NCBI GenBank assembly: GCA_000002445.1
Contig: CH464491.1
Location: forward strand, 4,096,001 to 4,160,000
DNA from: Trypanosoma brucei
Lineage: Eukaryota
DNA: 64,000 nucleotides
Reading direction: 5' to 3'
The notes under the pieces were generated by a model. It had not been told where the DNA came from and ran no database searches. It saw only the letters and a list, made by a program, of their open reading frames with translations. This document shows positions 26,469 through 55,171 of the stretch, piece by piece. Both the position numbers and the translations under genes were made by a program. Within the stretch, counting starts at the first letter, position 1. Every line of letters begins with the position of its first letter.

Positions 26469-28850
26469 CTACGATTTGGAAGAAACTGTCGTCCTACGAC
26501 CTGAATTTGCACCGCTCTTGCAGGCTTCCGCGTGTTCAGGAAGATCGTGCACGCGCATGTGTGTGCCACATCCTGGACAGGGAATGATTGACACCTTCAC
26601 ACATTCATAACAAGCGCGGGTAAAGGCGTCAAGTTCTTCTCTTGTAGCTTCAGACACGGCCTCTGGAATGCACCGAGTCGGTATTCCCATATTGAGGCGC
26701 AGCGTACTGAGACCATACCGCCTATACAGAGCCGTTGTTTTGGTGCGGCAAAAATCTAAATGCAGGGAATACGTTTTTAGGGGTTGCATTTCACCACAAT
26801 AGTAACAGGGAACCACTTCACGAGACCTCCTGAGCATCCCTTGAAGAACTGCTGCTGCCGAAGCGATGCAGGAGCCCCTGTTGGTTTGTGTACCGAAAAC
26901 AGTGGAGCGACGGGTAGGGGACACGCGCACTGAAGGTTCGGTGGAGGAGGAAACTCCTTTTTGTGACTCTCGAAGTAGGAGTAGCAGCTCCTCTTCCATC
27001 GTGGAACCTGCAGGCGCGCGCGCAGGTAGAACACTGGATAGATTTGTAGATACAGTTCTCGTATCAAATTTACTAGCATGGAAGGCATCTTCGGGATCAA
27101 CCCTCGGCGCCTCCGATCCCATTTTACCGTCACGAGATTTGGCCTGGGGCGCCGGTTCGTGTACCGTTGTTGGCAACCGGGGTGCCCACTCGCTTTGGCG
27201 ACTGCTGCTCTCATTACTGATGCTATGACAAGCACCATCAACGGCATCGGCAGCAACGGCCTGGGAACGAGGTCCTTCACGAGAGGGAGTCGAGACTTTG
27301 ATGGTGTGTGCGGTTGCCGAAGTAAGCAATGACGGGTCCTCCACCTCACGAATGGCTTGTTGGCGTTGCTTGATATTTTGCTGAGACCTCGGTTGCAGTT
27401 CACTCTGTTCTTTCCCTCCGTGTGTGGAACGCTTCGTGGAACTCTTTGTCTCGCTGCTCATGGTACCGCTACGTTTCGTACTGCTCTTCGCAACCGATGT
27501 GGGGGTGGGCGCACGTTTGTGCGTTGACGATGACACGGACGCCTTCGCTGCTGGCTTCTCCACATTATTTTCTTCACGCACAGCAACCTTACTGTTATGC
27601 GCAGTGCTCTGCTTGCTTGTGGAGATGACACTGTCTGGTGTGTCCCCCGGATGTTTTTCACTCCGTGAATTTGCGCGAGCCGATGGATTGGTTACTGGCG
27701 AAAGTGTTGCCGTTGTAGGTGAGACAAGTGGGTATACGAGGCTTTGTCGTACTCTAGTGCTCCCGCTGTTTTCTCCCTCACGTCGACGCGAAGACTCTAA
27801 AGGGTGCTGCTCGGATGGTTTTTTCATGGCCACTACACTCATTGGAAGCATGCTAATGCCGCCATGGGATGCACGCCACGAGGAGGGGCTGCTGCTTCGG
27901 AGGGAGGACATTACGGCGGCACCAGAGGCAAGTTGAGCTGAGGCACGTGACGTGGCAGTTGTTCGTGGAGATACACTCCGATTATCGCTCTCCGCACTCA
28001 TGGTCCTTCTGGGAACAGCGCTTTGTGATTGCCGATTGTGCTCTTCTTCACCCCTTAACTCGGGCTCCTGCCCTTCTTCTTGCTGCAGTCGAAGTTGCAG
28101 ATCCATCTCCTCTTTTAAATGAAGCTCCCGTTTCACTTCCTCTGTCAGTCGAAGCATGCGCTCCTCCTCTTGTTCCACTTGGACCTTCAGCTCTACTTCA
28201 TCTTTTGGCCTGTTCCTCCGCTTATCTTCCTCCCTCTGCCTGCGCTTCCATTCTTCCTCTTCCTCCTTTTGTTTACGCTTGCGCTCTTCCTCTTCCCTCT
28301 GCTTGCGCTTGCGGTCCTCTTCCTCTTCCCTCTGCTTGCGCTTGCGGTCCTCTTCCTCTTCTTCCCTTTGTTTACGCTTGCGCTCTTCCTCTTCCCTCTG
28401 CTTGCGCTTGCGGTCCTCTTCCTCTTCCTTCGCCCTGAGTTCCCTGTCTTCCTCCACCTCCTCCTTTTGTTTAAGAATCACTTCTCCCTCTTCCCTCAAT
28501 GGAGGCTCCTGTTCTCCGTTGATACAGGAACACCGCTCTTCCTCTAGACTGAAGAGCCGATCCCACTCATCTTCCCTCAGCCAGTCACTCCGTTCTTCGT
28601 CACACACGGTGGGTTCACCCTGCCCGTTTTGTGACCTCCTGTTCATTACCAGCTGCCTATACTGCGCTATTACCTCTGCGCGTCTTGTGTGGCTGTCCAT
28701 AAGGCGTTGGTAGTCGATCCTTATACTGCTGCAGCTGCTTCCCCTGTCAACACTATCATTCCATCGTGTAGATGGGGAAATTGACGGTCTCAACGCTGAG
28801 CTTTCACTTTGGTTCCTCTCACTGACTGACTTCCGAGTTGGCTTTGACAT
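26469..28850 (-). CDS. ZC2HC-type (C2HC) zinc-finger protein with an internal Glu/Arg/Lys-rich tandem repeat (~793 aa)
   Basis: The C-terminus has two C-x2-C-x11-H-x3-C units (CYYCGEMQPLKTYSLHLDFC and CPGCGTHMRVHDLPEHAEAC), as in ZC2HC1/FAM164-family proteins. Central units EEE(E)DRKRKQREEE repeat at least five times and are encoded by a nucleotide tandem repeat at about 28200-28440. The first codon is TTG; I trimmed to the ATG at 28848..28850 (MSKPTRKS..). Confidence 0.55.
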   Translation of the reverse strand: MSKPTRKSVSERNQSESSALRPSISPSTRWNDSVDRGSSCSSIRIDYQRLMDSHTRRAEVIAQYRQLVMNRRSQNGQGEPTVCDEERSDWLREDEWDRLFSLEEERCSCINGEQEPPLREEGEVILKQKEEVEEDRELRAKEEEEDRKRKQREEEERKRKQREEEEEDRKRKQREEEEDRKRKQREEEERKRKQKEEEEEWKRRQREEDKRRNRPKDEVELKVQVEQEEERMLRLTEEVKRELHLKEEMDLQLRLQQEEGQEPELRGEEEHNRQSQSAVPRRTMSAESDNRSVSPRTTATSRASAQLASGAAVMSSLRSSSPSSWRASHGGISMLPMSVVAMKKPSEQHPLESSRRREGENSGSTRVRQSLVYPLVSPTTATLSPVTNPSARANSRSEKHPGDTPDSVISTSKQSTAHNSKVAVREENNVEKPAAKASVSSSTHKRAPTPTSVAKSSTKRSGTMSSETKSSTKRSTHGGKEQSELQPRSQQNIKQRQQAIREVEDPSLLTSATAHTIKVSTPSREGPRSQAVAADAVDGACHSISNESSSRQSEWAPRLPTTVHEPAPQAKSRDGKMGSEAPRVDPEDAFHASKFDTRTVSTNLSSVLPARAPAGSTMEEELLLLLRESQKGVSSSTEPSVRVSPTRRSTVFGTQTNRGSCIASAAAVLQGMLRRSREVVPCYYCGEMQPLKTYSLHLDFCRTKTTALYRRYGLSTLRLNMGIPTRCIPEAVSEATREELDAFTRACYECVKVSIIPCPGCGTHMRVHDLPEHAEACKSGANSGRRTTVSSKS
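28200..28440. repeat. intragenic tandem repeat (39-42 bp units) encoding the charged EEEDRKRKQREEE array
   Basis: cctcttcctcttccctctgcttgcgcttgcggtcctcttc... recurs at least five times with small variations. This is why the + strand shadow ORFs there read LCLRLRSSSS. Confidence 0.75.
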
Positions 28851-35600: not shown

Positions 35601-37763
35601 CTTGCCTTGTACTTCATCGGAGCCTTTTGTGCGGATGAAGTTCCGGATTTTATCGAGCACGTTGTCCACTTGCAGCAAATCACGTACAAATCTGTAGTTG
35701 GACCCCCCGACCCCAGCTTCCTGCGCCACGGACAGCAAGTGCTCATTCAGGTAATATGGGCTGATACATGTCCCAGCAACCCCCACGTGGGCTATCGTGT
35801 CCACAGTCATGAAACTGCTACCGGCGGAGGTCCCAAGGGGTCCGCACATACATAATAACTTCCAGAAGTTACTGCTCTTACGCACTGTTTTTGGATCCAT
35901 CCGAGCAAACTGAAGAAGGACGTGAAAAGCGATGGCACTAAGTCGTACATCAATCCAGAATGGAACCTTCTCCTGTGCTGCATCCCTAAGCACAAGCATG
36001 AATTCCGTCAACACCACATCGTCGGTAATCATCTCTACCGTTGCACATCTGCTCACGTCATCAATTTCCAACGCGAGCGTGGTGACTACCCCGTGAAGGA
36101 TCCGAAGGATCATTGTTGCTCCATGTACGCTGGGCTTTTCCACCACACAATGCAGCATACGTCGCATGGCCTCCTTGCGCTCAACCGCACCCTGCACGAC
36201 GTCACAAAAGAGGAGTGCATAAAACTGCTCAAGCTGATCCACCAAAGGTCCAGCTGTTCCCACGAGCGGCGACACCTCCCTCCCCTCGAAGCCCTTAGGG
36301 CCAAAGAAAGATGTAAGGTGGGAGGCACGGTCAACCTCCGCGCACAGTCTCGTGTCAAGGGAAACTTCCAATACGCTGGTGAATAAAAATTTTCTGGGGA
36401 ACAACTTTAGCAGTGGGGCGGATAGAGACCACAGGCGCATGAGCCCGATTTTGCGGAATGCCACATTTGGGTGAACCAACATTTTTAAAAAGAGTAGGGT
36501 CACCCACAGGGGGTGAATACCTCCCTTGAGCTGCAGGAGTAATATCTCATCCCCAGTTTCCCCAAAATCCGCCCACACGCTAGCGTCAGCTGTCACCTTT
36601 TCCACCAAAGAATCCAGTTTGGGAAGTATCGGTTGAATAATGTGCATTCCATAATCATTAGTTACCTCCAGAATAAGAAACAACATTTCCCACAGGTTGT
36701 TACTCACCGTTGGCACCCACACAAAGAGTGGATGGTATATTCTGCTGGCATCCCACTTCTCGCGCAACTCCTGGTCACGGGTCATTGCCACTATACGCTT
36801 GAGAAGATACTCAGCTCGCGACTGCATGTTCACGCGGTTCTCCACACTGCCACTGCCCGTACAGGCTCCATAAATTGCAGCGTGAATCGTGTCCCACAGA
36901 TTTGTTGAGCATCGGTAGTCCCGCTGCCTGTCACCATCCACGCATGAAAACAAGCATTCAAACAATGCTGCAATTAGCACAACAGTGTCTATCTGACTGC
37001 CCGCATTACACGTTAGCAGTGAACAAATACGGGAATGACCATCTTCCAAGAGAGCCTTGTCACCTAACGACAGCAGCGGAATCAGCACGCGGCGACAAAG
37101 GTACGAGCCCTGTGCGGATTCTTCACGCATATAAGGGATCGCATTAAGCGCGTAATCGATCACCATGCTTCTGATCGTGATACCACGCTCCTCTTCGCTA
37201 CGAATCTTTGCTTCATCGACCTCGTCATCGTTCATCCCCCTCGGGCCCCGCTTGCATCTCTCGTTCAGAGTGACCAGTGCAGTGGCAAACTGGGCCAATA
37301 GTTCGATAGCGCACTCCTTAGGTACCGTCAAATTGGTGTCAACCCCGCGAAGTGAATCCCCTGCCGCCACCAGTATTGCAATACTGCAACCCGAGAGGGT
37401 CACTTGTACAATGGAATAAAAAACGGCAGCAAGCACAGACTTTGGGTATGGTGGATGTGCCGTTAGGATGGACACCATCTCCACTTCCCACTTTGTAGTT
37501 TCTTCCGTACCACATCCACCGCCGCCAGAGGCGTCACAAAGGATCAGTGCACCACTGCAATATATATGCGCATCTGTACACATCTCCTTCTCGCTTTCGA
37601 GTAGTGCCAAAATCCGCAAAAACTGAAGCCGCCGCTCCCGGCCGCACATCGCCATCGCCAACTCCTTTGCTACGCCGAAGGCTTTGGAAGGATGAGGCTC
37701 ATTTTCTCCCTTACAAAAGCAACGAACCAACGCAACGACAACATCCTCCACCTTCGCTTCCAT
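32613..37763 (-). CDS. Trm3/TARBP1-like giant protein with a C-terminal SpoU/TrmH-family RNA 2'-O-ribose methyltransferase domain (~1716 aa)
   Basis: The C-terminal ~150 aa (..VIVIASLLQNPVNVAGLFRCGEVFAVEKVVV.. ..AVIVLGAEGHGIPAQLL...IPQYGLIRSLNVHVTGSIVMYEY) is a SpoU methylase fold. A long alpha-helical N-terminal region fits the Trm3 (tRNA Gm18) / TARBP1 architecture. The ORF-track start is TTG followed by 51 codons of translated pyrimidine tract (LLLVFYLKKKCCCCLFLLF); I trimmed to the ATG of MEAKVEDVV.. (about 37763). Confidence 0.7.
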   Translation of the reverse strand: MEAKVEDVVVALVRCFCKGENEPHPSKAFGVAKELAMAMCGRERRLQFLRILALLESEKEMCTDAHIYCSGALILCDASGGGGCGTEETTKWEVEMVSILTAHPPYPKSVLAAVFYSIVQVTLSGCSIAILVAAGDSLRGVDTNLTVPKECAIELLAQFATALVTLNERCKRGPRGMNDDEVDEAKIRSEEERGITIRSMVIDYALNAIPYMREESAQGSYLCRRVLIPLLSLGDKALLEDGHSRICSLLTCNAGSQIDTVVLIAALFECLFSCVDGDRQRDYRCSTNLWDTIHAAIYGACTGSGSVENRVNMQSRAEYLLKRIVAMTRDQELREKWDASRIYHPLFVWVPTVSNNLWEMLFLILEVTNDYGMHIIQPILPKLDSLVEKVTADASVWADFGETGDEILLLQLKGGIHPLWVTLLFLKMLVHPNVAFRKIGLMRLWSLSAPLLKLFPRKFLFTSVLEVSLDTRLCAEVDRASHLTSFFGPKGFEGREVSPLVGTAGPLVDQLEQFYALLFCDVVQGAVERKEAMRRMLHCVVEKPSVHGATMILRILHGVVTTLALEIDDVSRCATVEMITDDVVLTEFMLVLRDAAQEKVPFWIDVRLSAIAFHVLLQFARMDPKTVRKSSNFWKLLCMCGPLGTSAGSSFMTVDTIAHVGVAGTCISPYYLNEHLLSVAQEAGVGGSNYRFVRDLLQVDNVLDKIRNFIRTKGSDEVQGKQLMFLLGALDSMGGEDRQVLADVARELAEMVLSFGRRPYSEAEDIFVALVAFVEFHHSVGSQPCTRYFPLSVILDVEDAVSGLAISSLRQAFHSIKEVTTLGDLSAEAWALQSTSRWDAVVAAVVTISQIAVSYDHSSASVVLRSGKRISDFVELLSVVAEGFPAIVPEDESRRVAQHFAHIVLARNASRALKGMLCGLVGTGDNISINDKRRDEDKTFLRCLSNNDRARCIRTLMRCPALRLSACDIPCSLTDLSWSNVLAQYYGCVYDVIFLLCSCMDQSAVPELVHELEEYGLDQVERCWESNLTSIYGILSWVASAPASPKGDSSVNIDRRSIINAMFGHLGVAGGRDHCRMTVLAFDALRCGVECEEELVKTHIYRTLLDEAQSERAGYIAAVTLSTEVLRDPESNWLRLKELLLHVAVLHNPSREEEGAEVLVAALEPLMLKAWPESLRVQYPPTVRLSYVGRAMAISAILCCCFKKEEWAADVTLQLLEWNNSNPAVNHEPCMPNSKAHRSRMRLWQLLCALVPMVRSPTVQRDLLHVVVMKCLTLTNMGSVRRLMELFALQLLQRQPQLYWIIDNAMANYQLRPQVIGSYVFISAHVILRELRGEVEPVDGLMDTLLHRLFQQSTSHQHMLRLVCHIGLNFIREASVARGIVFSANEESIFDYVANAPEHVKFRVQHAEQLFFDVREACTPRQLFCIQRREGNNILLVSIPAVAFERMRFIDREVACLTGVLTPVDQIRVQVLMQHFEASRVLEPLKEFPYIPHTKSTALFCVDYTPEAVAVLTADTHISEGMSSVTGYENVQRKATPWWSSQLYDELHPRALKTERQPVIVIASLLQNPVNVAGLFRCGEVFAVEKVVVSDAAVLEHPHFVAAARSSDLWLPWSAVQVKALSGYLSSLRQDGYTLVGIEQTAGSVPMSSYQFPKRAVIVLGAEGHGIPAQLLTVLDVCVEIPQYGLIRSLNVHVTGSIVMYEYTRQHRMGGAPESS

Positions 37764-38676
37764 TCGGAGATGGGAACCTAGTAACACACCACGGATACCC
37801 AAAAGTACGAAAGAAAAAAGAAGAGGATACAATAAATGAAACAGCAAAAACAAACAACAACAACACTTTTTCTTTAGATAGAAAACCAACAACAGGACCC
37901 GCAACAGTATCGTCAAAATCTTGTTTGCCTGCAGCCAAAAGGAGGGGAAAAAACGTTACTGCGAGTAAGAATTGAACTGACGAGACAGACAATAGAGAGA
38001 GCGACACAAAGTTCACGTTATAAGTAACAGCAGGGGTTACGAAAACATGAACAATATCACAAAAGAAATTAAACTAGAAAAAAGAAGCACATTCACGTAT
38101 TTTGGAAGAGCGTTCATTAACCGGTATCACCGACGGCAGTAGTAATAATTACACAACACGTATATATATATGAAGTACAAAGGGTATCAAGAGAAGCACA
38201 GCAACAGCTACATGAAAGCGGACACACACAGCATAACCACTTCACTCTCTTCGGTCAGCAAACCAACAAAAACCATAACATGGGTAAGTCTTGGATTAGA
38301 AACCGAATTAATCCGGATACGAAAAAGGGGGTCCAAAAAGATAGAAGAGTGTGGCGATGTAGAGAAAAAGACAAAGTGAGTTGTGTGACTCACATGACAA
38401 TAGGGAAAGCGGAAAACAGATCCGTATCCCCTCACCCAACTAATACAGCAGCTTCCCACTACTCAAATTAATGAAGGCGCTGACGCAATAAGGATGTGGA
38501 TCTGAATTATACCTCAGTGGGTGGATGCAGCAACAAGTTGCTATGATGTCATGGCAAGAAAGTGCCTAACTACGGGGAGGTACACAAACAAAGTAAACAC
38601 GGCAGCGCACATGGAGGCATTCCAAACAGTAATCCAAAACACAACATATATAGATCTTGTGGGAGGGGAATGTGCT

Positions 38677-38700
38677 ATATATATATATATATATATATAC
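38677..38700. repeat. (TA)12 microsatellite in repeat copy A, (TA)14 in copy B
   Basis: Counted directly: gc(ta)12cg in A, gc(ta)14cg at 45232..45259 in B. Confidence 0.8.
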
Positions 38701-39779
38701 GTAACCACTAATATCAAATCGAGAAGAATTAGGAAAGAGGGAAACGTGAGCAACAAATAAACCATCTGTCAGAAAACGTAACGCATCAGTGTACACAAAC
38801 ACACACAACTCTGGGGTAGTAATGTGCCACACTCCAGAAAACAAGAATCAAACTGAAGCATTTGATCATCAGTTTCACCACACACGAAGGTAAGGGGATA
38901 TATGAAACCAGATTCGCAGGGCTCCTCACAAGTACCACACTTCATCGCGCTGCCCAGTCAGACCACCAAACACCACGTGCGATGTGTGCAGACAAAAGGG
39001 AAGTTTGTGTTGGATGCAGGAAAAGGTATAGTGGCAAAGGGATTTAAAGGACAAAAAGAAGGGATAAAATAGAAAACACTATACAACACGTAATGCAACG
39101 TCTCAACCATAGGGATTAAACACCTAAAGGCTTACCCACCCACAACCCCAACCGCAGAAAATCCAATAATAATGGTGAGGAGGAGGGAAACAGCCTCTCT
39201 AAACAGCGTACCATAGAGACATTTGCGAAAAGGAAAGGGGTATTTTATTTTTGCACAAGGAAAAAAAAGAGCGAGGGAATTAACAAAAATTCAAAAAAAG
39301 GAAAAAAATAGATAGAAAATAACACAAAACCGTCAGTATCATAAGGGAAAATGTTAAAAAACAATCGTTCGCATACAAAGAACAGTAAAATAACAACAAG
39401 AAATGCTGAATTGCCCTTCCATACATTTATATATCTATGGAATTCTACGGCAAGCATCTTTAGACACTCATGAAAACTGTTATAGACATGGCTATGCAGC
39501 GTCCGCGGGGGAGAACGGCATCCAACAAACCATATAATGCAGTTTTCTTACTTCATCCACTAATATTACCAAGTTGCATCATTGATTCATAGGCCTCCCA
39601 TCATCAGTGGCATTATGTGAGACATGCATTTTCAACCCCATATCGCTGTCGCAAATGCCTAAATTCACACAAGAAAGGGGATGAACGAGAAAAATAAAAA
39701 AAACAAGAGGGAAAACAAAGAAGGAAAAGAAAAGAAAAGAGGGTATACTTCAATTAGGTCACGGGTTCTGACACATCCG

Positions 39780-41168
39780 CTACTTCTTAACCTCGTCGTA
39801 AATGGTTAATGCCGTACCAAACACAACAGCGAATACGCCGACAATGAGCAACTGGTATGTGACAGCGTAGTTGAACCACCCAACCTCTTTCAGAGAGAAG
39901 TTCCCCGCATACATGTAATACAGTGCTGGTAGAATAAAAGCAAGGAAGCCACCACAGAAACTTCCAAGAAAGTTGAAGACAACTTCAATACTGGGTAGCA
40001 CAAGTCCCAGTACGAGAGCGAGGGTAGCCAAGACACCACTCACTACGAGGTTCTTCCAGCTGTCAACATCAGACGTCTTCCCCCATCCCAATACATAATA
40101 AATCGCATCACGAGATGGCTGGATGCAAATAGCGAATCCTACGCATATCTTGATAGCGATGCCAACATACCCGATGGCCATCATCACATCATCTTGTGGT
40201 TTGTACAATTTGAGTACGGAGCCTTCTAGATCATTCCCGAAATCAAGATAACCGAAGATACCAGACAAGAAATACAGGAGACCAACCATCGACATCGCCA
40301 CACTACTGTCGCGCGTCATTCGCCGTGGGGTGGGTCCCTTCATCTCTTCATACACCTCAAAACAATTCACCTGACATATGAAGGCAAATACAAACAGTGT
40401 GAAGCCATTCAGAATCCCCCATCCATCACCGACGAGTCGAATGTCCGATCCTATCCCGTCTTTCAAGCCATTCATCGCAGCGTGTACAATCATGCATATC
40501 ACAAAGAAAACAATGAAGAAAACACCCACAGCAGAAGCATATCGAAGTGAGTTAATCTCCTTGGGAAGCGAGAGTGGTAACATGGCAACCAACCAAACTA
40601 CACCAACAATAACGTTCTTTCCCATCGATGTCCTCAGGAATCCAGTTGTTGAAGGCTGATTCAAAAGTGGAGAGAGTAAGTCACCCACTGATATCACGTA
40701 CCCAACGCAGGTTCCAAAGCAGAAAACAAACATCAAGAAAGCCGTAAAGTAGTCTGCACCGCGGCCAAGCAACCCACACGCCATCTCCTCATACGAACGG
40801 AATCCAGTTTTGTCCCTAGTGATCACGAGTATGCGGATAGAGTACACTGTGGTGAAGCAGATGTACACCAACATTAACGTGGCAATTATTATGCCAGAGT
40901 TGAGGAAACCAGAAGGCAGCATCACAATTCCAGCACCAAGGGTAGCACTCTCCAGGTTAAACACATTTGACGCCATTCCACCATATGGAACAATTCCCTT
41001 GATGGGGTCAAATACCGTGTTCAGGCAGCCCCTGTGCTCCCCGTCAGCAGCTGCTGTAGATTTATCGCTGTCTGGAGGTAATTCCAACACATTACCCTGA
41101 GACAAGCTTGGTATTAAGGTTGGGTGTTCGTCCTCGTTTATTATTGGCTCTGTTGCCCTGGGTGACAT
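39780..41168 (-). CDS. amino acid transporter (Aa_trans/AAAP family, AAT-type, ~11 TM), copy 1
   Basis: True ATG (cat at 41166..41168). 462 aa with multiple hydrophobic helices. Typical kinetoplastid AAT architecture: a hydrophilic N-terminus MSPRATEPIINEDEHPTL.. followed by ..LGAGIVMLPSGF... Confidence 0.85.
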   Translation of the reverse strand: MSPRATEPIINEDEHPTLIPSLSQGNVLELPPDSDKSTAAADGEHRGCLNTVFDPIKGIVPYGGMASNVFNLESATLGAGIVMLPSGFLNSGIIIATLMLVYICFTTVYSIRILVITRDKTGFRSYEEMACGLLGRGADYFTAFLMFVFCFGTCVGYVISVGDLLSPLLNQPSTTGFLRTSMGKNVIVGVVWLVAMLPLSLPKEINSLRYASAVGVFFIVFFVICMIVHAAMNGLKDGIGSDIRLVGDGWGILNGFTLFVFAFICQVNCFEVYEEMKGPTPRRMTRDSSVAMSMVGLLYFLSGIFGYLDFGNDLEGSVLKLYKPQDDVMMAIGYVGIAIKICVGFAICIQPSRDAIYYVLGWGKTSDVDSWKNLVVSGVLATLALVLGLVLPSIEVVFNFLGSFCGGFLAFILPALYYMYAGNFSLKEVGWFNYAVTYQLLIVGVFAVVFGTALTIYDEVKK

Positions 41169-41215
41169 CTGCAGTTAACGTGAGTACTTAACTTTACAAT
41201 ATGCGCAGTAAGTGA

Positions 41216-41262
41216 GGAAAAGTAAGAAAATAAGAAAAAAAGAAAAGGAGTCAAACGCCCTG
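41216..41262 (-). promoter_or_regulatory. polypyrimidine tract on the coding strand upstream of the transporter ATG (candidate trans-splicing / polyadenylation signal region)
   Basis: + strand reads gtaagaaaataagaaaaaaagaaaaggag, which is a C/T-rich run on the minus strand 50-100 nt 5' of the ATG. This is the standard kinetoplastid arrangement. An identical tract sits upstream of copy 2 at about 47813..47859. Confidence 0.5.
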
Positions 41263-41410
41263 GCGTAACACAACAGTATATGACACAAACAATCAGGGAG
41301 GCGTAACCACAACATAAACACACAACACACAGATGCGAAAATGAGAGTAAGGACATAGAACTCAAACAGGAGCATTATCCACGCATCTTCACGCAACGCT
41401 TCCCACAACC

Positions 41411-43675
41411 TCAGTTATTGTCATCAAGTATATCCTTCGCAAGCCGCCACCCCCACGGGTTCTCTGCACACGGGTATGGTGGGGCGAGGAGGAGACCCTG
41501 CCGCTTCCGTTCCGCATCCTCCGCAACGTGACGAAGTGCCTGTTGTACCGCAGACACTCCCGTACCCCAAAATAGCAGTGGTTTGTTAGGTACACTCCAT
41601 GCTTGACCTAGAAGTTCCGGTTGAAACGTGCGTCGCCGGCGCTCGAACGGGTTAGCAGCTTTCCGCTCATCATCTTCCCGCAATTCACGCCATGCTTGCA
41701 CATCTGCCGCAGACACGTACGACATGTTTTCTGGTATTGGTAACAGCGGTGGTCGTTCCGCCTCTTCCATGTTTTGGAGCCACTCCATTTCCGTTTTCAC
41801 ATCGTTCTCAATTATACCCAGGATACGCATTGTCATCTTTTCCTTGCGTTGTTGGTGAAGGGCACGTAACTCCTCCGCAATACTTTGTTCGCCACCTTTG
41901 AGGCTCCTTATGATTCGATTAAGCATACGTGCTTTCGTTGCCGCCGCGCTCTGCACGTGGCGGTCCCGGATAACCCTAAGAGTTATTTCACGGATCTTTT
42001 CAAAGAGGGATGATGCCTCCGCATCGTCGTACACGTTAAACATTCCTGGTCCAACCTCACAATGATCTCCCTCGGTTTTGGCGGACTGGATGGCTGATCC
42101 CTCCCCCTCAGGAGGTGACGTCATGTTGCATTGGGCTGTTTTCTTTTCCATTATCTTTTCGTACAACTCCCGACATTGTGCTGCTTCCGGCATATTTTCC
42201 ACGCCGTCGAATAGCTTGGCATTTTCCCTGACGCACCTAATCTGCCGCTCCATCTGCATATGTGCAAGATACCGGAGGCGCTTTTCGTGCAACGATTCCA
42301 GACGTTTATCTTTGGGATCCATAAACATCTTCTCAACTAGGTTGACCACCTTTTGCGTTTTTATGCGGGCGACCTCGGCTTCGGCTTCGCAAGCAAATGC
42401 ATGACCTGTACCCGCAGTTTCTTTAATGTGCTTTACCGTCGATTCATCCCGTTGTTGGATTTGGAGTAGCTTTTGGTACTCTGGCGTGCTTTGCAGTGGG
42501 AGGAGCAATGCCCTTTCGTACCAGCGCTTGGCCCAATCCACGGGGTGTGCTCCCTCTTTAGATGAATAGTACTGGACAACGTCTAATGTGCTTAGCGTGG
42601 CGGCATCCATAGAGTATAGTTTGCGCAGACTTTCAATATACGCACTAAGATTCTCATCCTTTCCCGTGTGTTTGAAGCCACTGCCGAGTGTCAGCCGTGC
42701 AAAAACTTCGCAAAACTGTAGGAACTCCTCCTGGGCTTGCATCTCCGTCAGAACAGTTTCAGCGACGGCGATATCGAGGCCCACAGCGCGGTTAATAACG
42801 CGCTTAAGTCTCTCCATGCGCGACATCTTTCTGCTCCCACCCTTACGCCCCTTCACACCGCCCCTTTGCTGCGCCATCCTTCGAAGTCTTTCGATTTCTG
42901 CCAACTGATGATGCCGTTCCTCCAGTTTAACTTGCCGTAACCGCATCTCGGCATACTTGAACATATTGGCAAGGTGCTTCTGCGTTTCCAAATTGAGTTC
43001 CGCGGTGAGATTCGCCAGCATCCGTCTCTCAGCCTCCGTGCTGACACCTTCACGCTTTTTGTGAACGTAATCTGCAAACACTTGTTTCACGTGTGTCATC
43101 GCATTTTCCAGCCGGTGAACGTTTTCGGGATCGAAAAGGGAGGCATCAGCAGCATCGTATACGGCTTGCGACACACCGAGGGAGTACTGTGGATTCTTGA
43201 GGTGCACCGGCAAACCCAGTTTGACACGCTCGTACTCGTCTCGCACCGTTTTCCGTGGATCTAACTCAAAAACGTCAGCCATTGTGGTTTCGAAATACCT
43301 TCGGCGCTGCTGCTCTGTTGTTTCTGTGGGATGCTCCTGAAGCACTTTGTGCATGTACTTCGCAAAGGCATGCTTTTCGTCAACTGGCACACCTTCCCAT
43401 TCGGCGTCCGTCATGTGCTTTGCGCGCTCCGCCACCTCGCAACCAACACGACGCGTTGCCTCCTTTGAACGCTCCCCCTTGCTCCGTGGTGCTCTCGCTG
43501 AAGGTGAGCCGCCAAGCTCGGCATACAGCGCCTGTCGCTCGAAGTTTTCGCCCTGAGCCTTCTGAGCGGCCACCATTCGACGAACTTTCGCACGTTGACT
43601 ACGGGGATTTAGCAGCGAACTTCCAGGGGCTGGAACAAAGGCAGAGCGTCGGAAAAAAGGTATTGTGTGCCGCAT
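41411..43675 (-). CDS. hypothetical protein (754 aa), charged and helical, with an N-terminus resembling a mitochondrial presequence
   Basis: True ATG (cat at 43673..43675). Starts MRHTIPFFRRSAFVPAPGS.. Non-repetitive. Its last ~68 codons lie inside duplication copy A and recur as a fragment in copy B. Confidence 0.5.
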   Translation of the reverse strand: MRHTIPFFRRSAFVPAPGSSLLNPRSQRAKVRRMVAAQKAQGENFERQALYAELGGSPSARAPRSKGERSKEATRRVGCEVAERAKHMTDAEWEGVPVDEKHAFAKYMHKVLQEHPTETTEQQRRRYFETTMADVFELDPRKTVRDEYERVKLGLPVHLKNPQYSLGVSQAVYDAADASLFDPENVHRLENAMTHVKQVFADYVHKKREGVSTEAERRMLANLTAELNLETQKHLANMFKYAEMRLRQVKLEERHHQLAEIERLRRMAQQRGGVKGRKGGSRKMSRMERLKRVINRAVGLDIAVAETVLTEMQAQEEFLQFCEVFARLTLGSGFKHTGKDENLSAYIESLRKLYSMDAATLSTLDVVQYYSSKEGAHPVDWAKRWYERALLLPLQSTPEYQKLLQIQQRDESTVKHIKETAGTGHAFACEAEAEVARIKTQKVVNLVEKMFMDPKDKRLESLHEKRLRYLAHMQMERQIRCVRENAKLFDGVENMPEAAQCRELYEKIMEKKTAQCNMTSPPEGEGSAIQSAKTEGDHCEVGPGMFNVYDDAEASSLFEKIREITLRVIRDRHVQSAAATKARMLNRIIRSLKGGEQSIAEELRALHQQRKEKMTMRILGIIENDVKTEMEWLQNMEEAERPPLLPIPENMSYVSAADVQAWRELREDDERKAANPFERRRRTFQPELLGQAWSVPNKPLLFWGTGVSAVQQALRHVAEDAERKRQGLLLAPPYPCAENPWGWRLAKDILDDNN

Positions 43676-46376
43676 ATTAGTAGAATTCTAAAAAAAAAAA
43701 CGTACGCCTTTCGAATCGTTAAATATTGGGCTCCTCCACGTAGGGGTGAGCCTGAGAAAACAAGCAGATGGGTCCGATAAATACTCTTACAATAGAGCTG
43801 TTACAAAGGTTTTATGTATTTTTCTCCCTTGAATGATCTTCTTCCCACCATTAAGTGATAAAAGAAAAGAAAGCAGGGGAGATGAGAGTCATAGTGAAGT
43901 TAAAGAAGTGCCATAAACCCCTATTAAAGGACGTCACTAAAAGGAACTGAATAGCAGGTACATCCTGATGCAAACAGGAAACACATCGCACTTGTTTACG
44001 ATGTGGAAGCACAAAATAATGGGGGTGAAAATGTACGGGAAACCACATCTATACACAAAGAATTTGTTCCAGGCACCTGTACGAAATATTTTCATAAACC
44101 CTGCGGCATTCCCAAAATGAAAGTAGTGCCTTAAGCCGAAAGCGGCATCCAAGGCGGCAAACCAAAACTGAAAAGGGGAAAAACAGCGCCTCAACGAAGC
44201 AACCATCTATCCCCATGGGAACAAGCCAACAAACTTTATCCAGGTGGTTCGGGGAGTTCTGTAGCTTCGCTACAAAACACAACGTCTGCCGGTGGCACCA
44301 GGCGCCCCACAATAACTTCCAGTGCCTTTTCAAGCGCAAGCAGGCCCTCGCCCTGCCCAGAAGTTGAACACCAACCTGCCACGTCCGGTAAAATGTAAGG
44401 TATAGGAGCATCATCCGAATGTTCAAAATCATTAAAGGAGGCATCACCGAGACATACAAATAGCGGGTTATCATCCTTCCTAACAACTTTATCGTCCCCC
44501 TGCAAGGGACAATTTACAGAGCCGTTGATATGCAGTGGCGTGGAGCAAAACATATCAACAGCAAATCGCCGCTAAAACTAAAACAAAATAGAACAAAAGC
44601 GCAAGAAGACGATAGGACACATATGCCAATACGTAAAATCAGTCACTCAATAAAAGAAACAGCCTAAAATATTAACCGGTATCACCGACGGCAGTAGTAA
44701 TAATTACACAACACGTATATATATATGAAGTACAAAGGGTATCAAGAGAAGCACAGCAACAGCTACATGAAAGCGGACACACACAGCATAACCACTTCAC
44801 TCTCTTCGGTCAGCAAACCAACAAAAACCATAACATGGGTAAGTCTTGGATTAGAAACCGAATTAATCCGGATACGAAAAAGGGGGTCCAAAAAGATAGA
44901 AGAGTGTGGCGATGTAGAGAAAAAGACAAAGTGAGTTGTGTGACTCACATGACAATAGGGAAAGCGGAAAACAGATCCGTATCCCCTCACCCAACTAATA
45001 CAGCAGCTTCCCACTACTCAAATTAATGAAGGCGCTGACGCAATAAGGATGTGGATCTGAATTATACCTCAGTGGGTGGATGCAGCAACAAGTTGCTATG
45101 ATGTCATGGCAAGAAAGTGCCTAACTACGGGGAGGTACACAAACAAAGTAAACACGGCAGCGCACATGGAGGCATTCCAAACAGTAATCCAAAACACAAC
45201 ATATATAGATCTTGTGGGAGGGGAATGTGCTATATATATATATATATATATATATATACGTAACCACTAATATCAAATCGAGAAGAATTAGGAAAGAGGG
45301 AAACGTGAGCAACAAATAAACCATCTGTCAGAAAACGTAACGCATCAGTGTACACAAACACACACAACTCTGGGGTAGTAATGTGCCACACTCCAGAAAA
45401 CAAGAATCAAACTGAAGCATTTGATCATCAGTTTCACCACACACGAAGGTAAGGGGATATATGAAACCAGATTCGCAGGGCTCCTCACAAGTACCACACT
45501 TCATCGCGCTGCCCAGTCAGACCACCAAACACCACGTGCGATGTGTGCAGACAAAAGGGAAGTTTGTGTTGGATGCAGGAAAAGGTATAGTGGCAAAGGG
45601 ATTTAAAGGACAAAAAGAAGGGATAAAATAGAAAACACTATACAACACGTAATGCAACGTCTCAACCATAGGGATTAAACACCTAAAGGCTTACCCACCC
45701 ACAACCCCAACCGCAGAAAATCCAATAATAATGGTGAGGAGGAGGGAAACAGCCTCTCTAAACAGCGTACCATAGAGACATTTGCGAAAAGGAAATATTA
45801 TTAAGCAAAAAAGCGTAAAAAGGGAGGCGAGGCAAGGAATCACAAAATACTAACTTAATTACTACAGGCAGATAAATAAGGGTAAAAAAAAACAACTATT
45901 GCCGCTACTCAGTATCATAGTCAACAAAAGTTTTTTCGTTGTGCCTCTATAACGCGATAACTAATATTTTTAAAAAACCATAAATTAATTCGTAGAGATT
46001 TCCTCAAACTCTTACATTGCGATAAAGAGATTATCCTTTTTTTTTTTACAGATATTCATCATTGACGTTAAAAAAGTTGTAGATATGGCTATGCAGCGTC
46101 CGCGGGGGAGAGCGGCATCCAACAAACCATATAATGCAGTTTTCTTACTTCATCCACTAATATTACCAAGTTGCATCATTGATTCATAGGCCTCCCATCA
46201 TCAGTGGCATTATGTGAGACATGCATTTTCAACCCCATATCGCTGTCGCAAATGCCTAAATTCACACAAGAAAGGGGATGAACGAGAAGAATAAAAAAAA
46301 CAAGAGGGAAAACAAAGAAGGAAAAGAAAAGAAAAGAGGGTATACTTCAATTAGGTCACGGGTTCTGACACATCCG

Positions 46377-47765
46377 CTACTTCTTAACCTCGTCGTAAAT
46401 GGTTAATGCCGTACCAAACACAACAGCGAATACGCCGACAATGAGCAACTGGTATGTGACAGCGTAGTTGAACCACCCAACCTCTTTCAGAGAGAAGTTC
46501 CCCGCATACATGTAATACAGTGCTGGTAGAATAAAAGCAAGGAAGCCACCACAGAAACTTCCAAGAAAGTTGAAGACAACTTCAATACTGGGTAGCACAA
46601 GTCCCAGTACGAGAGCGAGGGTAGCCAAGACACCACTCACTACGAGGTTCTTCCAGCTGTCAACATCAGACGTCTTCCCCCATCCCAATACATAATAAAT
46701 CGCATCACGAGATGGCTGGATGCAAATAGCGAACCCCCCACAAATCTTGATAGCGATGCCAACATACCCGATGGCCATCATCACATCATCTTGTGGTTTG
46801 TACAATTTGAGTACGGAGCCTTCTAGATCATTCCCGAAATCAAGATAACCGAAGATACCAGACAAGAAATACAGGAGACCAACCATCGACATCGCCACAC
46901 TACTGTCGCGCGTCATTCGCCGTGGGGTGGGTCCCTTCATCTCTTCATACACCTCAAAACAATTCACCTGACATATGAAGGCAAATACAAACAGTGTGAA
47001 GCCATTCAGAATCCCCCATCCATCACCGACGAGTCGAATGTCCGATCCTATCCCGTCTTTCAAGCCATTCATCGCAGCGTGTACAATCATGCATATCACA
47101 AAGAAAACAATGAAGAAAACACCCACAGCAGAAGCATATCGAAGTGAGTTAATCTCCTTGGGAAGCGAGAGTGGTAACATGGCAACCAACCAAACTACAC
47201 CAACAATAACGTTCTTTCCCATCGATGTCCTCAGGAATCCAGTTGTTGAAGGCTGATTCAAAAGTGGAGAGAGTAAGTCACCCACTGATATCACGTACCC
47301 AACGCAGGTTCCAAAGCAGAAAACAAACATCAAGAAAGCCGTAAAGTAGTCTGCACCGCGGCCAAGCAACCCACACGCCATCTCCTCATACGAACGGAAT
47401 CCAGTTTTGTCCCTAGTGATCACGAGTATGCGGATAGAGTACACTGTGGTGAAGCAGATGTACACCAACATTAACGTGGCAATTATTATGCCAGAGTTGA
47501 GGAAACCAGAAGGCAGCATCACAATTCCAGCACCAAGGGTAGCACTCTCCAGGTTAAACACATTTGACGCCATTCCACCAGACGGAACAACTCCCTTGAT
47601 GGGGTCAAATACCGTGTTCAGGCAGCCCCTGTGCTCCCCGTCAGCAGCTGCTGTAGATTTATCGCTGTCTGGAGGTAATTCCAACACATTACCCTGAGAC
47701 AAGCTTGGTATTAAGGTTGGGTGTTCGTCCTCGTTTATTATTGGCTCTGTTGCCCTGGGTGACAT
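46377..47765 (-). CDS. amino acid transporter (Aa_trans/AAAP family), copy 2
   Basis: 462 aa, differing from copy 1 at only about 3 residues (I/V, Y/S in ..KG(I/V)VP(Y/S)GGMASN.. and V/G in ..KIC(V/G)GFAIC..). Same flanking sequence. Confidence 0.85.
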   Translation of the reverse strand: MSPRATEPIINEDEHPTLIPSLSQGNVLELPPDSDKSTAAADGEHRGCLNTVFDPIKGVVPSGGMASNVFNLESATLGAGIVMLPSGFLNSGIIIATLMLVYICFTTVYSIRILVITRDKTGFRSYEEMACGLLGRGADYFTAFLMFVFCFGTCVGYVISVGDLLSPLLNQPSTTGFLRTSMGKNVIVGVVWLVAMLPLSLPKEINSLRYASAVGVFFIVFFVICMIVHAAMNGLKDGIGSDIRLVGDGWGILNGFTLFVFAFICQVNCFEVYEEMKGPTPRRMTRDSSVAMSMVGLLYFLSGIFGYLDFGNDLEGSVLKLYKPQDDVMMAIGYVGIAIKICGGFAICIQPSRDAIYYVLGWGKTSDVDSWKNLVVSGVLATLALVLGLVLPSIEVVFNFLGSFCGGFLAFILPALYYMYAGNFSLKEVGWFNYAVTYQLLIVGVFAVVFGTALTIYDEVKK

Positions 47766-48007
47766 CTGCAGTTAACGTGAGTACTTAACTTTACAATATG
47801 CGCAGTAAGTGAGGAAAAGTAAGAAAATAAGAAAAAAAGAAAAGGAGTCAAACGCCCTGGCGTAACACAACAGTATATGACACAAACAATCAGGGAGGCG
47901 TAACCACAACATAAACACACAACACACAGATGCGAAAATGAGAGTAAGGACATAGAACTCAAACAGGAGCATTATCCACGCATCTTCACGCAACGCTTCC
48001 CACAACC

Positions 48008-48220
48008 TCAGTTATTGTCATCAAGTATATCCTTCGCAAGCCGCCACCCCCACGGGTTCTCTGCACACGGGTATGGTGGGGCGAGGAGGAGACCCTGCCG
48101 CTTCCGTTCCGCATCCTCCGCAACGTGACGAAGTGCCTGTTGTACCGCAGACACTCCCGTACCCCAAAATAGCAGTGGTTTGTTAGGTACACTCCATGCT
48201 TGACCTAGAAGTTCCGGTTG
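48008..48220 (-). pseudogene. truncated 3' fragment of the 754-aa gene created by the duplication breakpoint (last ~68 codons + stop only)
   Basis: The translation ..QPELLGQAWSVPNKPLLFWGTGVSAVQQALRHVAEDAERKRQGLLLAPPYPCAENPWGWRLAKDILDDNN is identical to the C-terminus of the gene at 41411..43675. Upstream of the junction the sequence is unrelated. The M in the ORF track is a TTG. Confidence 0.7.
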
Positions 48221-49054
48221 CAAATTGTAGATAAAGTTTTCGTGGGTAGGGTTGCGCTAACGACTGTTATCCGTATGTTGTTTCAATGAGTATTGTTATC
48301 GCCTTGCAAATGTTCTTTTTCAAGATTTGGAGGAGAAGGAAGCTCTTCGCCTTTTTTCATCGAATCATTCTTTATAACACGAACGTTACGTTGATCCATT
48401 GCGTTTCTGTTCTTTAAATGTTTGAAATCTGAAACTTTTGTCGCATATCAATTGGAACCTATTCTTCTCGTTTGTGTGTGTGTATTTATTAAAAGCTGTC
48501 TCACTTACCTGCTTTTTCGCGTCGTGTTACCTTCCCCCACACTTTAATCACTTTTTCAAACAGCTGACTTTGATTGTTACACTTTTTCCGCAGCGTAACG
48601 CAAGGAAATGCGATAAATCTTTCCCATAACAAAATGTATTTGTTGCACAAAACGACATTTCAGTGAGATGCTACCCCGATCACATTTGTAATGCAGGTAC
48701 ATCGTGTTTTAGTTTCACTCAACCAGGGTTCCACTTGGCAATGGTCACCCGAAACCATTCTGTATATTACATAATCCGCACCGCATGAATACGAAGAGAG
48801 CATTTGTACGTGCCCAAGGGATGTTTAGTGATTTTACTATCCGTGAAAGGGGTAAAAAGGGATTGATTGAGTCCTCTTTGTTCCCTCCACCCCTTTCGGC
48901 AAATGTCAGACTTTTCCTTTCCTTTGCTCCCCCCCCCCAAGGCACACACGTGATTCGTTCAACACATTTATTGGCTAATACACATGCACCGTGCGAGGAT
49001 AGGCGTACGGGTCTAGGGTGAAGAGCACACAAATACACCCAACCATCGGATCCT

Positions 49055-50665: not shown

Positions 50666-51260
50666 AAAAAAAAATCCTAAAGAACAAAAAGTACCAGAGA
50701 GGAGCCAGTGCGAGCTTAGAAGCGAAGGCGCTGGAAGAACCAACGGTTGTTACCGGCGTTGTAGCGGGCCTGAAACAGACGTTTCACCAACTGCTTCGAC
50801 TTCGCCTTCTTCGATGCGTCGGAAACATTGATGCGACCGCGCAGTTCACGCGAGAGGTCCATGTTGTATCGGGTTGGTAGAAAGTGCTTGTGATTCACAA
50901 CGCGGAGGAACACACCAACTTGCGAGCGGCGTGTGATGGAGCGCTTGCTCATCCCGCGCACAACCTTTCTTGGGTATTTTTTAATTCCGGCGAGCAACGA
51001 ATGACCGTACGGGCGCTCCTTGTTCCTCGTATCCGTGTTCTGCACGATCACAGCCTTCTTGCCGGCATACCGGCCCGAAGTCATGATCACAACCTTGCCG
51101 GGCTTCAGAAACTTCATCACTGCCAGCACACTAATCCAGTGGGAAATGACAAGAAATAAAAGGACAGCAGATGGGAGATAGCAAGGGTAATAAAGAGTGA
51201 GTATACAAACAGGTTTCAAAGGCATTGGAACGGTGCCGGTGGAAAGACCATTCGGGAAAT
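50666..51260. repeat. ~595-bp direct repeat carrying a complete L27 gene, copy A
   Basis: Identical to 54577..55171 (offset 3911 bp), apart from a mismatch near the right end. Confidence 0.9.
50716..51117 (-). CDS. RPL27: 60S ribosomal protein L27 (133 aa), copy 1
   Basis: MKFLKPGKVVIMTSGRYAGKKAVIVQNTD...RYNAGNNRWFFQRLRF is an unmistakable eukaryotic L27e sequence. The ATG (cat at 51115..51117) was chosen over the upstream in-frame extension, which reads through spacer. Confidence 0.9.
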   Translation of the reverse strand: MKFLKPGKVVIMTSGRYAGKKAVIVQNTDTRNKERPYGHSLLAGIKKYPRKVVRGMSKRSITRRSQVGVFLRVVNHKHFLPTRYNMDLSRELRGRINVSDASKKAKSKQLVKRLFQARYNAGNNRWFFQRLRF

Positions 51261-54576: not shown

Positions 54577-55171
54577 GAAAAAAAATCCTAAAGAACAAAA
54601 AGTACCAGAGAGGAGCCAGTGCGAGCTTAGAAGCGAAGGCGCTGGAAGAACCAACGGTTGTTACCGGCGTTGTAGCGGGCCTGAAACAGACGTTTCACCA
54701 ACTGCTTCGACTTCGCCTTCTTCGATGCGTCGGAAACATTGATGCGACCGCGCAGTTCACGCGAGAGGTCCATGTTGTATCGGGTTGGTAGAAAGTGCTT
54801 GTGATTCACAACGCGGAGGAACACACCAACTTGCGAGCGGCGTGTGATGGAGCGCTTGCTCATCCCGCGCACAACCTTTCTTGGGTATTTTTTAATTCCG
54901 GCGAGCAACGAATGACCGTACGGGCGCTCCTTGTTCCTCGTATCCGTGTTCTGCACGATCACAGCCTTCTTGCCGGCATACCGGCCCGAAGTCATGATCA
55001 CAACCTTGCCGGGCTTCAGAAACTTCATCACTGCCAGCACACTAATCCAGTGGGAAATGACAAGAAATAAAAGGACAGCAGATGGGAGATAGCAAGGGTA
55101 ATAAAGAGTGAGTATACAAACAGGTTTCAAAGGCATTGGAACGGTGCCGGTGGAAAAACCATTCGGGAAAA
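54577..55171. repeat. ~595-bp direct repeat carrying a complete L27 gene, copy B
   Basis: See copy A. Confidence 0.9.
54627..55028 (-). CDS. RPL27: 60S ribosomal protein L27 (133 aa), copy 2
   Basis: Nucleotide-identical CDS to copy 1. ATG at 55026..55028. Confidence 0.9.
   Translation of the reverse strand: MKFLKPGKVVIMTSGRYAGKKAVIVQNTDTRNKERPYGHSLLAGIKKYPRKVVRGMSKRSITRRSQVGVFLRVVNHKHFLPTRYNMDLSRELRGRINVSDASKKAKSKQLVKRLFQARYNAGNNRWFFQRLRF

Follow-up and report, generated by a model that had tools for sequence, protein, structure and literature searches.

Unmatched blocks in the 3' flanks of the duplicated TbAAT16 lysine transporter genes of Trypanosoma brucei: a spacer that probably escapes gene conversion

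The TbAAT16 locus of Trypanosoma brucei brucei TREU927, located in a 64-kb window of chromosome 11 (the whole stretch of DNA analysed, 64,000 nucleotides (nt) in length), raises the question of how two nearly identical lysine transporter genes, Tb927.11.15840 (copy A) and Tb927.11.15860 (copy B), came to be followed by different blocks of sequence within an otherwise shared 3' flank. These blocks, alpha behind copy A and beta behind copy B, are the sole sizeable sequence by which the two repeat units can be told apart. The original prediction interpreted them as a clean cassette-like replacement that could exchange a regulatory element and place the two genes under different post-transcriptional control. 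We consider it likely that alpha and beta instead represent the only sizeable part of the AAT16 unit that escapes gene conversion, a fast-evolving spacer that is an ordinary by-product of concerted evolution and not a swapped cassette. The idea of a clean replacement is at odds with the old age of the duplication, the homogenisation of its flanks by conversion, the frayed edges of the blocks, and the mosaic of both block types present in T. b. equiperdum IVM-t1.

Self-BLAST of the window delimited two direct repeat units of approximately 3.5 kb, A (38116-41626) and B (44671-48224), each with one interruption and, outside the alpha and beta blocks, 99.3-100% identical to the other. The long open reading frames (ORFs) of the locus are encoded on the minus strand. 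Read in the direction of transcription, each unit begins with a 458 nt upstream part, followed by the AAT16 ORF, a shared 3' flank of 292 nt, the block itself, and a shared distal flank of 1.12 kb. In the self-BLAST, region 39473-41626 matches 46070-48224 at 99.3%, and region 38116-39236 matches 44671-45795 at 99.6%; alignment of the latter pair revealed no substitutions and a single 4-nt (TA)2 indel. Base-by-base extension gave exact limits for both blocks, with neither boundary being shiftable, and identity resumes at ATGGCTATGCAGCGTCCGCGGGGGA. The description from which this work started, of copies that are identical for about 1.1 kb and then unmatched for 251 versus 289 bp, is exact to the base in its coordinates, lengths and resumption point. 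It also placed the block correctly in the 3' flank of near-identical transporter genes of a kinetoplastid, as the block starts at +293 past both stop codons. Its wording "completely unrelated" is fair for this window alone: alpha compared with beta gave z = 1.5-2.6 under a null model preserving local composition, and a local alignment z of about 1.

The age and direction of the duplication follow from the comparison with related species. In T. vivax and T. cruzi the gene order is VASt, small ORF, KPAC1, AAT16, TARBP1, with a single AAT16, and T. conorhini, T. theileri and Leishmania major also possess one AAT16 each. The T. congolense contig opens with an AAT 3' end and its flank upstream of KPAC1, a layout as in T. 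brucei, and this upstream stretch is 98.2% identical to the downstream copy. Since T. congolense has two copies and T. vivax and T. cruzi only one, the AAT16 duplication took place before T. brucei and T. congolense diverged. On the basis of outgroup synteny, copy A, which lies at the ancestral position downstream of KPAC1, is the ancestral copy, and copy B, located between the VASt-domain gene and the small ORF, is the derived one. This agrees with the KPAC1 fragment found beside copy B, which marks the 5' edge of the duplication. The duplicated unit is comprised of the 3' end of KPAC1, the AAT16 ORF and approximately 1.7 kb of 3' flank.

Within T. brucei the paralogues are 99.3-99.6% identical, and within T. 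congolense 98.2%, while a comparison across species gives only about 76% identity for the ORFs and no alignable flanks. Given the old duplication and this distance between the species, the 99-100% identity within T. brucei is therefore the result of concerted evolution. Loci anchored on KPAC1 were compared for T. b. gambiense DAL972 (Sanger assembly), T. b. equiperdum IVM-t1 (PacBio assembly), T. equiperdum OVI and T. congolense, and sites were classified by counting site patterns in an alignment of the six units of TREU927, DAL972 and IVM-t1. Among the sites of the proximal module, 11 follow the genome, displaying a strain-specific state common to both paralogues, and 7 follow the position, clustered at 41624, 40984-40994 and 40137-40146. 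The distal module contains 3 sites that group by genome and none that group by position. These 11 and 3 strain-specific sites, being common to both paralogues, indicate that conversion has occurred on both sides of the block since the strains separated. The (TA)n microsatellites of the distal module (approximately 38161-38172, 38690-38700, 44716-44727 and 45245-45258) vary in length between strains and tend to match between the paralogues of one genome.

Smaller islands are found inside the coding region. The AAT16 proteins are identical at 459 of their 462 residues, and two ORF micro-islands, retained in TREU927, DAL972 and IVM-t1 although the surrounding sequence was converted, explain all three amino acid differences (I59V, Y62S and V343G). 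The tract boundaries are abrupt in TREU927 and differ by lineage, being shifted about 19 nt into the block in copy A of IVM-t1. The locus displays the features of a gene-conversion mosaic, namely similarity within species, shared lineage-specific substitutions, and tract ends that are abrupt and vary by lineage.

Despite the conversion on either side, the arrangement of alpha and beta is unchanged in three genomes: DAL972 and IVM-t1, like TREU927, have alpha after copy A and beta after copy B. The alpha block of DAL972 is 97.6% identical to that of TREU927, the alpha block of IVM-t1 carries several deletions, and beta measures 317 nt in both DAL972 and IVM-t1, with a 27-28-nt indel relative to TREU927. 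Because DAL972 and IVM-t1 hold the same arrangement, the difference between alpha and beta is no assembly error, and it predates the T. brucei subspecies. The sole discordant assembly is that of T. equiperdum OVI (L003/L011, CZPT02001381.1), in which beta and B-type markers occupy the copy-A position. It was discarded as evidence for beta at this position, as the contig carries A-type together with B-type markers and runs out about 31 nt within the repeat edge, which probably reflects a collapse of both AAT16 units, or a chimera of them, during assembly. A Logan contig of another sample (L002) stops exactly at the proximal block boundary. Considered as a transcript, its 5' end has no preceding AG, and the contig is uninformative on RNA ends.

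These assemblies also bear on the proposal that a mobile or retroposed sequence (for instance a RIME, ingi or SIDER fragment) gave rise to one of the blocks by insertion or replacement, or that the difference is an artefact of assembly. The sharp boundaries and a run of A11 contained in beta are what such an origin could leave. However, no second copy of alpha or beta was found in the 64-kb window by self-BLAST and no target-site duplication was found at the block junctions, while both block types are present in independent Sanger and PacBio assemblies and the discordant OVI contig fits repeat collapse. We regard this proposal as scarcely credible.

Several features lead us to favour alpha and beta as diverged homologues. 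The 5' edge of the blocks is frayed, with 11 matches in the first 15 nt (GTCTATAACAGTTTT versus ATCTACAACTTTTTT), and a collinear 11-mer, TATGATACTGA, is common to both. In IVM-t1 the copy-A block is a mosaic of alpha and beta, with a beta-like start of about 19 nt and a beta-like patch, AACGAAAAACTTTT, in collinear position. The similarity of this IVM-t1 block to beta reaches z = 7-10, compared with only 1.5-2.6 for alpha and beta of TREU927. Local alignments of alpha and beta with both T. congolense flanks did not exceed those of shuffled sequences.

In T. brucei, recurrent conversion keeps the proximal module (the ORF and 292 nt of flank) and the distal module (1.12 kb) nearly or fully identical between the copies, and the spacer between these modules is weakly constrained. 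This spacer would have drifted until it became too different for heteroduplex formation. Mismatch repair in T. brucei rejects diverged recombination partners. Conversion tracts would then stop at the edges of the spacer, which would account for the sharp boundaries and for the appearance of a swapped cassette. A comparable break is seen in the outgroup T. congolense, in which the two copies abruptly cease to match 198 nt past the stop codon.

The rate at which the blocks change is consistent with a weakly constrained spacer. Between TREU927 and DAL972, 15 of 539 block sites differ (2.78%), compared with 0.32% in the distal module (Fisher p = 8.5e-7 versus the blocks) and 0.61% in the ORF; the blocks change at about 9 times the rate of the distal flank and are the fastest-evolving part of the unit. 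With this divergence and the 27-28-nt indel in beta, no sign of purifying selection was found on either block version. No excess of RNA structure over shuffled sequence was detected in the blocks (z = -0.56 for alpha and +0.84 for beta), and searches of two regions against Rfam (37500-48500 with a cutoff of E<=1, 38050-39800 with a cutoff of E<=10) returned only chance matches on the TA microsatellite.

These results have to be weighed against the possibility that alpha and beta are alternative 3' untranslated region (UTR) cassettes, kept distinct by selection, through which the lysine transporter mRNAs are controlled differently, for example according to stage or nutrient. This reading is compatible with an origin by conversion and differs from the spacer interpretation by claiming function and selection. 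It draws on the fact that the blocks are the only substantial difference between the units and are held at both positions in three genomes despite flanking conversion, and on precedents for copy-specific 3' UTRs, such as Tb927.8.4700 of the AAT5 array (PMC5207785) and other arrays (PMC1855330). It is difficult to reconcile with blocks that evolve faster than any other part of the unit and have no excess of RNA structure. The original prediction had proposed a search of the blocks for known regulatory motifs, and a scan for UA(U)6, AUUUA, PUF, PUF9, UAU repeats and AAUAAA gave no significant or conserved motif. Two asymmetries only were found, neither of them significant or conserved. Alpha contains one RBP10-type UA(U)6, which is the sole one of the copy-A flank and speaks for a cassette, and beta has none; beta contains two AUUUA. 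The IVM-t1 allele lacks this UA(U)6, and one 8-mer is not significant in 251 nt of AT-rich sequence (the window contains 8 UA(U)6, compared with 3.9 expected).

Published data on the pair concern both genes together. The proteins encoded by the two TbAAT16 genes transport lysine with high affinity and are essential in bloodstream forms (PMC5207785). Tb927.11.15840 and Tb927.11.15860 have never been separated experimentally, as quantitative PCR (qPCR), ribosome profiling and proteomics treat both as one (PMC5207785 among the sources), and for Tb11.01.7500/7520 the supplements of Kolev 2010 give abundance only. It counts against the cassette reading that published studies did not or could not tell the copies apart. 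In addition, polypyrimidine tracts at the block ends and a gene resembling a small nucleolar RNA (snoRNA) downstream of the block suggest that much of the block may lie outside the mature mRNA. We consider selected cassettes unlikely, and a strong regulatory significance of the block is unlikely as well.

The downstream element just mentioned is a hairpin in the distal module, present in an identical version in each unit. The patch of about 70 nt is conserved in T. congolense and T. cruzi, and a covariance model built from three species also finds it in T. conorhini, T. theileri (twice) and L. major, with E values from 1e-11 to 1e-26; the model did not find it in the T. vivax contig. In the fetched loci the hairpin occupies positions 1757-1832 of L005, 16731-16802 of L007 (T. 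cruzi), 16449-16520 of L009 (T. conorhini), 7100-7175 and 16452-16527 of L008 (T. theileri), and 8968-9057 of L010. In its stems 92.8% of cells are paired, versus 22-52% in slid controls, and five pairs changed on both sides in a compensatory manner among 6 distinct sequences that span the range between T. brucei and L. major. The strands of the internal loop (UUCUAAUC and GUUUGCU) are invariant, as is an AGA directly 3' of the basal stem (CGAAGAGA), and the top of the pocket is located about 15-16 nt before this AGA, counted on the alignments.

A single covarying hairpin that has an AGA box, with conserved pocket strands lying about 14-16 nt before this box, looks like a candidate H/ACA-like snoRNA, as judged from these comparisons. 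Its predicted target would take the form 5'-AGCAAAC(C)-UN-GGAUUAGA-3', which we infer from the pocket strands. The hairpin most closely resembles the trypanosomatid AGA-box H/ACA-like snoRNAs reported with Psiscan (PMC2613932) in that these are also single hairpins of about 60-75 nt with an invariant AGA 3' of the basal stem, covarying stems, and an internal loop whose strands do not vary, as a pseudouridylation pocket would require; it differs from them by having no Rfam family match. The hairpin sequence was not found in the searchable literature or in searchable supplementary snoRNA lists, where the sole full-text match was an unrelated yeast paper. A simple regular-expression search for a box C/D snoRNA in the distal module was empty, and a weak C...C'...D arrangement near 38770-38880 was noticed by eye.

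The genomic position of the hairpin varies between species. In L. major it precedes KPAC1, in T. cruzi and T. conorhini it follows AAT16, and T. brucei and T. theileri have one hairpin at each of these sites. This variation invites the reading that two repeats of independent origin meet in the mosaic. One would be an AAT duplication, made up of the KPAC1 fragment, the ORF and about 292 nt; the other would be an older locus with two hairpin copies, the first placed before the small ORF and KPAC1 and the second after AAT. Alpha and beta would then be the non-homologous sequences in between. Alpha and beta are indeed without significant similarity in TREU927 and DAL972, and the identity of the T. 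congolense copies ends about 198 nt past the stop codon, as a junction at this place might leave it. On the other hand, the upstream hairpin copy of T. theileri carries fragments of the gene located downstream of the other copy, and for this reason it represents a lineage-specific duplication and not an ancestral locus. The match of 11 out of 15 nt at the block edge, the collinear 11-mer, and an IVM-t1 mosaic in register with both block types argue against non-homologous sequences, and the distance between hairpin and stop codon is nearly equal (about 1.46-1.51 kb) in both T. brucei copies and in copy B of T. congolense. An origin as the junction of two independent repeats appears quite improbable.

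The duplication in T. theileri (L008 6428-7630 versus 16396-17296) comprises the hairpin and part of the downstream gene of 330 amino acids (aa). It is located in the spacer between the VASt-domain gene and the small ORF, the intergenic region that took the AAT16 copy in T. brucei, and this spacer may be prone to recombination.

Trypanosome polyadenylation is coupled to downstream polypyrimidine tracts and takes place approximately 100-300 nt upstream of them. In alpha as in beta, a polypyrimidine tract makes up the 3' third, and the first AG beyond it, located in the shared sequence at about 39196 and 45755, is the same for both copies; the tracts are a common feature and not a common sequence. 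Since such tracts stand at the block ends and the snoRNA-like hairpin lies downstream, the AAT16 mRNAs may end in or before the block, and their poly(A) sites would accordingly be located within or before it, as far as the sequence can indicate. Under the preferred reading, in which alpha and beta form an unconverted spacer, the block would most likely be a region of mRNA 3'-end and inter-transcript processing, and its terminal polypyrimidine tract and AG would be a plausible spliced-leader acceptor for a downstream host transcript of the hairpin RNA. Any regulatory difference between the copies would then be a by-product, limited to the last 100-250 nt of the 3' UTR. A further polypyrimidine tract of 57 nt is present in both copies (39687-39743 and 46284-46340, minus strand, +37 to +93 past the stop codon) and is unusually strong for a site that no gene directly follows.

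A more far-reaching scenario combines these elements. Selection would keep alpha and beta distinct and thereby set different 3'-end formation or stability (for example through the RBP10-type UA(U)6 found only in alpha), the block would mark the border between the AAT16 mRNA and a downstream host transcript of a pan-trypanosomatid H/ACA-like snoRNA, and the duplicated snoRNA homology would have created the AAT16 duplication and would continue to remodel it. We give this scenario little credence.

A number of points weigh against the interpretation of alpha and beta as an unconverted spacer. The homology of the two blocks, as judged from sequence comparison, appears to be the weakest link of the argument: it is not statistically demonstrable within TREU927 and DAL972 (z = 1.5-2.6 and about 0, respectively), and it rests on a frayed edge, one 11-mer and a mosaic from the PacBio assembly of IVM-t1. 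A conversion tract running across the whole block ought to copy it from time to time, and the persistence of the block despite events on both sides could also mean selection. Given the hairpin sites in L. major and T. theileri, the distal repeat could have arisen before the AAT duplication and separately from it. In T. congolense the identity between the copies stops abruptly 198 nt past the stop codon, after which the flanks are unrelated for at least 777 nt, the copy-A flank being covered as far as 975 nt. Finally, the step that assigns a processing role to the spacer is inference only, and may be read as such.

Gene conversion affecting UTRs, with a mismatch between the histories of coding sequence (CDS) and UTR, has been described for tandem arrays of T. 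brucei (Jackson 2007, PMC1855330), and concerted evolution is documented for AAT loci (Jackson 2007, PMC1810246). The AAT16 pair shares with these arrays and loci that conspecific paralogues are far closer than orthologues, that the tracts reach into UTRs, that the histories of CDS and flank differ, and that some copies contain unalignable UTR segments. It differs from the arrays in being a dispersed two-copy duplicate with KPAC1 in between, which was not among the arrays tested for conversion there, and in that its unconverted piece is an internal island homogenised on both sides, whereas the known arrays display a terminal or wholly remodelled UTR. Alpha and beta are another example of the kind of mosaic already described in T. 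brucei arrays and AAT loci.

The features of the AAT16 locus discussed above are collected in Table 1. Exact-sequence look-up assigned accessions XP_829641 and XP_829643 to copies A and B.

Table 1. Features of the TbAAT16 locus, with coordinates given as positions in the window.
Feature	Coordinates	Strand	Remarks
Block alpha, 251 nt, copy A only, AT-rich, polypyrimidine 3' part	39237..39487	-	+293..+543 after stop
Block beta, 289 nt, copy B only	45796..46084	-	+293..+581 after stop
TbAAT16 copy A = Tb927.11.15840, lysine transporter, 462 aa	39780..41168	-	Pfam Aa_trans, exact match XP_829641, PMC5207785, synteny
TbAAT16 copy B = Tb927.11.15860, 462 aa	46377..47765	-	Pfam Aa_trans
KPAC1, Tb927.11.15850-type, 754 aa, XP_829642 (exact-sequence look-up), single-copy between the AAT16 units	41411..43675	-	
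Small ORF, 105 aa, conserved, next gene downstream of copy B	44236..44553	-	
Shared 5' part of unit	A 41169..41626, B 47766-48224	-	Includes last 216 nt of KPAC1 ORF (41411-41626)
KPAC1 3' fragment upstream of copy B (last ~70 codons, out of frame)	~48009-48224	-	
Proximal shared 3' flank, 292 nt	A 39488..39779, B 46085-46376	-	A versus B, 2 differences/292 nt
Distal shared module, copy A, 1121 nt	38116..39236	-	Without paralogue-specific site in three genomes
Distal shared module, copy B, 1125 nt	44671..45795	-	
ORF micro-island 1	A 40984..40994, B 47581-47591	-	3 fixed A/B differences
ORF micro-island 2	A 40137..40146, B 46734-46743	-	5 differences/10 nt, covers V/G343; partly converted in IVM-t1
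Hairpin, candidate H/ACA-like snoRNA, copy A distal module	38237..38312	-	
Hairpin, second identical copy, copy B distal module	44792..44867	-	239-314 nt upstream of small-ORF start codon

Elsewhere in the window, a dispersed duplicate of RPL27 (Ribosomal_L27e/KOW; 50667-51259 and 54578-55170, 99.8% identical over 593 nt) flanks an ORF of 1038 aa. Near-identical RPL27 copies are found in a like layout in T. cruzi (L007) and T. conorhini (L009), which suggests long-term concerted evolution of this pair as well. At 28225-28473, a unit of 33 nt recurs imperfectly in about 6 tandem copies (period 33/99 nt); on the plus strand this array is CT-rich.

Duplicated trypanosome genes such as PGKB/PGKC and THT1/THT2 carry copy-specific 3' UTRs and are expressed differently. 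The AAT16 pair resembles these genes, and Tb927.8.4700 (PMC5207785), in combining near-identical ORFs with a divergent segment of the 3' flank in an organism with post-transcriptional regulation. In those cases the divergent region is part of the mRNA and differential expression has been demonstrated, whereas the AAT16 block is short and fast-evolving and may straddle the zone of polyadenylation and trans-splicing.

The AAT16 mosaic overturns nothing in the current understanding of trypanosome gene families, and illustrates that homogenisation of the flanks alone can yield the look of a "cassette-like" replacement. What appears to be a long shared 3' UTR of 1.1 kb is at least partly a candidate small-RNA locus, which alters the reading of the transcript map. 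Alpha and beta are the only sizeable unique tags by which Tb927.11.15840 and Tb927.11.15860 can be separated in RNA-seq, qPCR and genome editing, and the locus provides a compact and datable example of concerted evolution with conversion-resistant islands.

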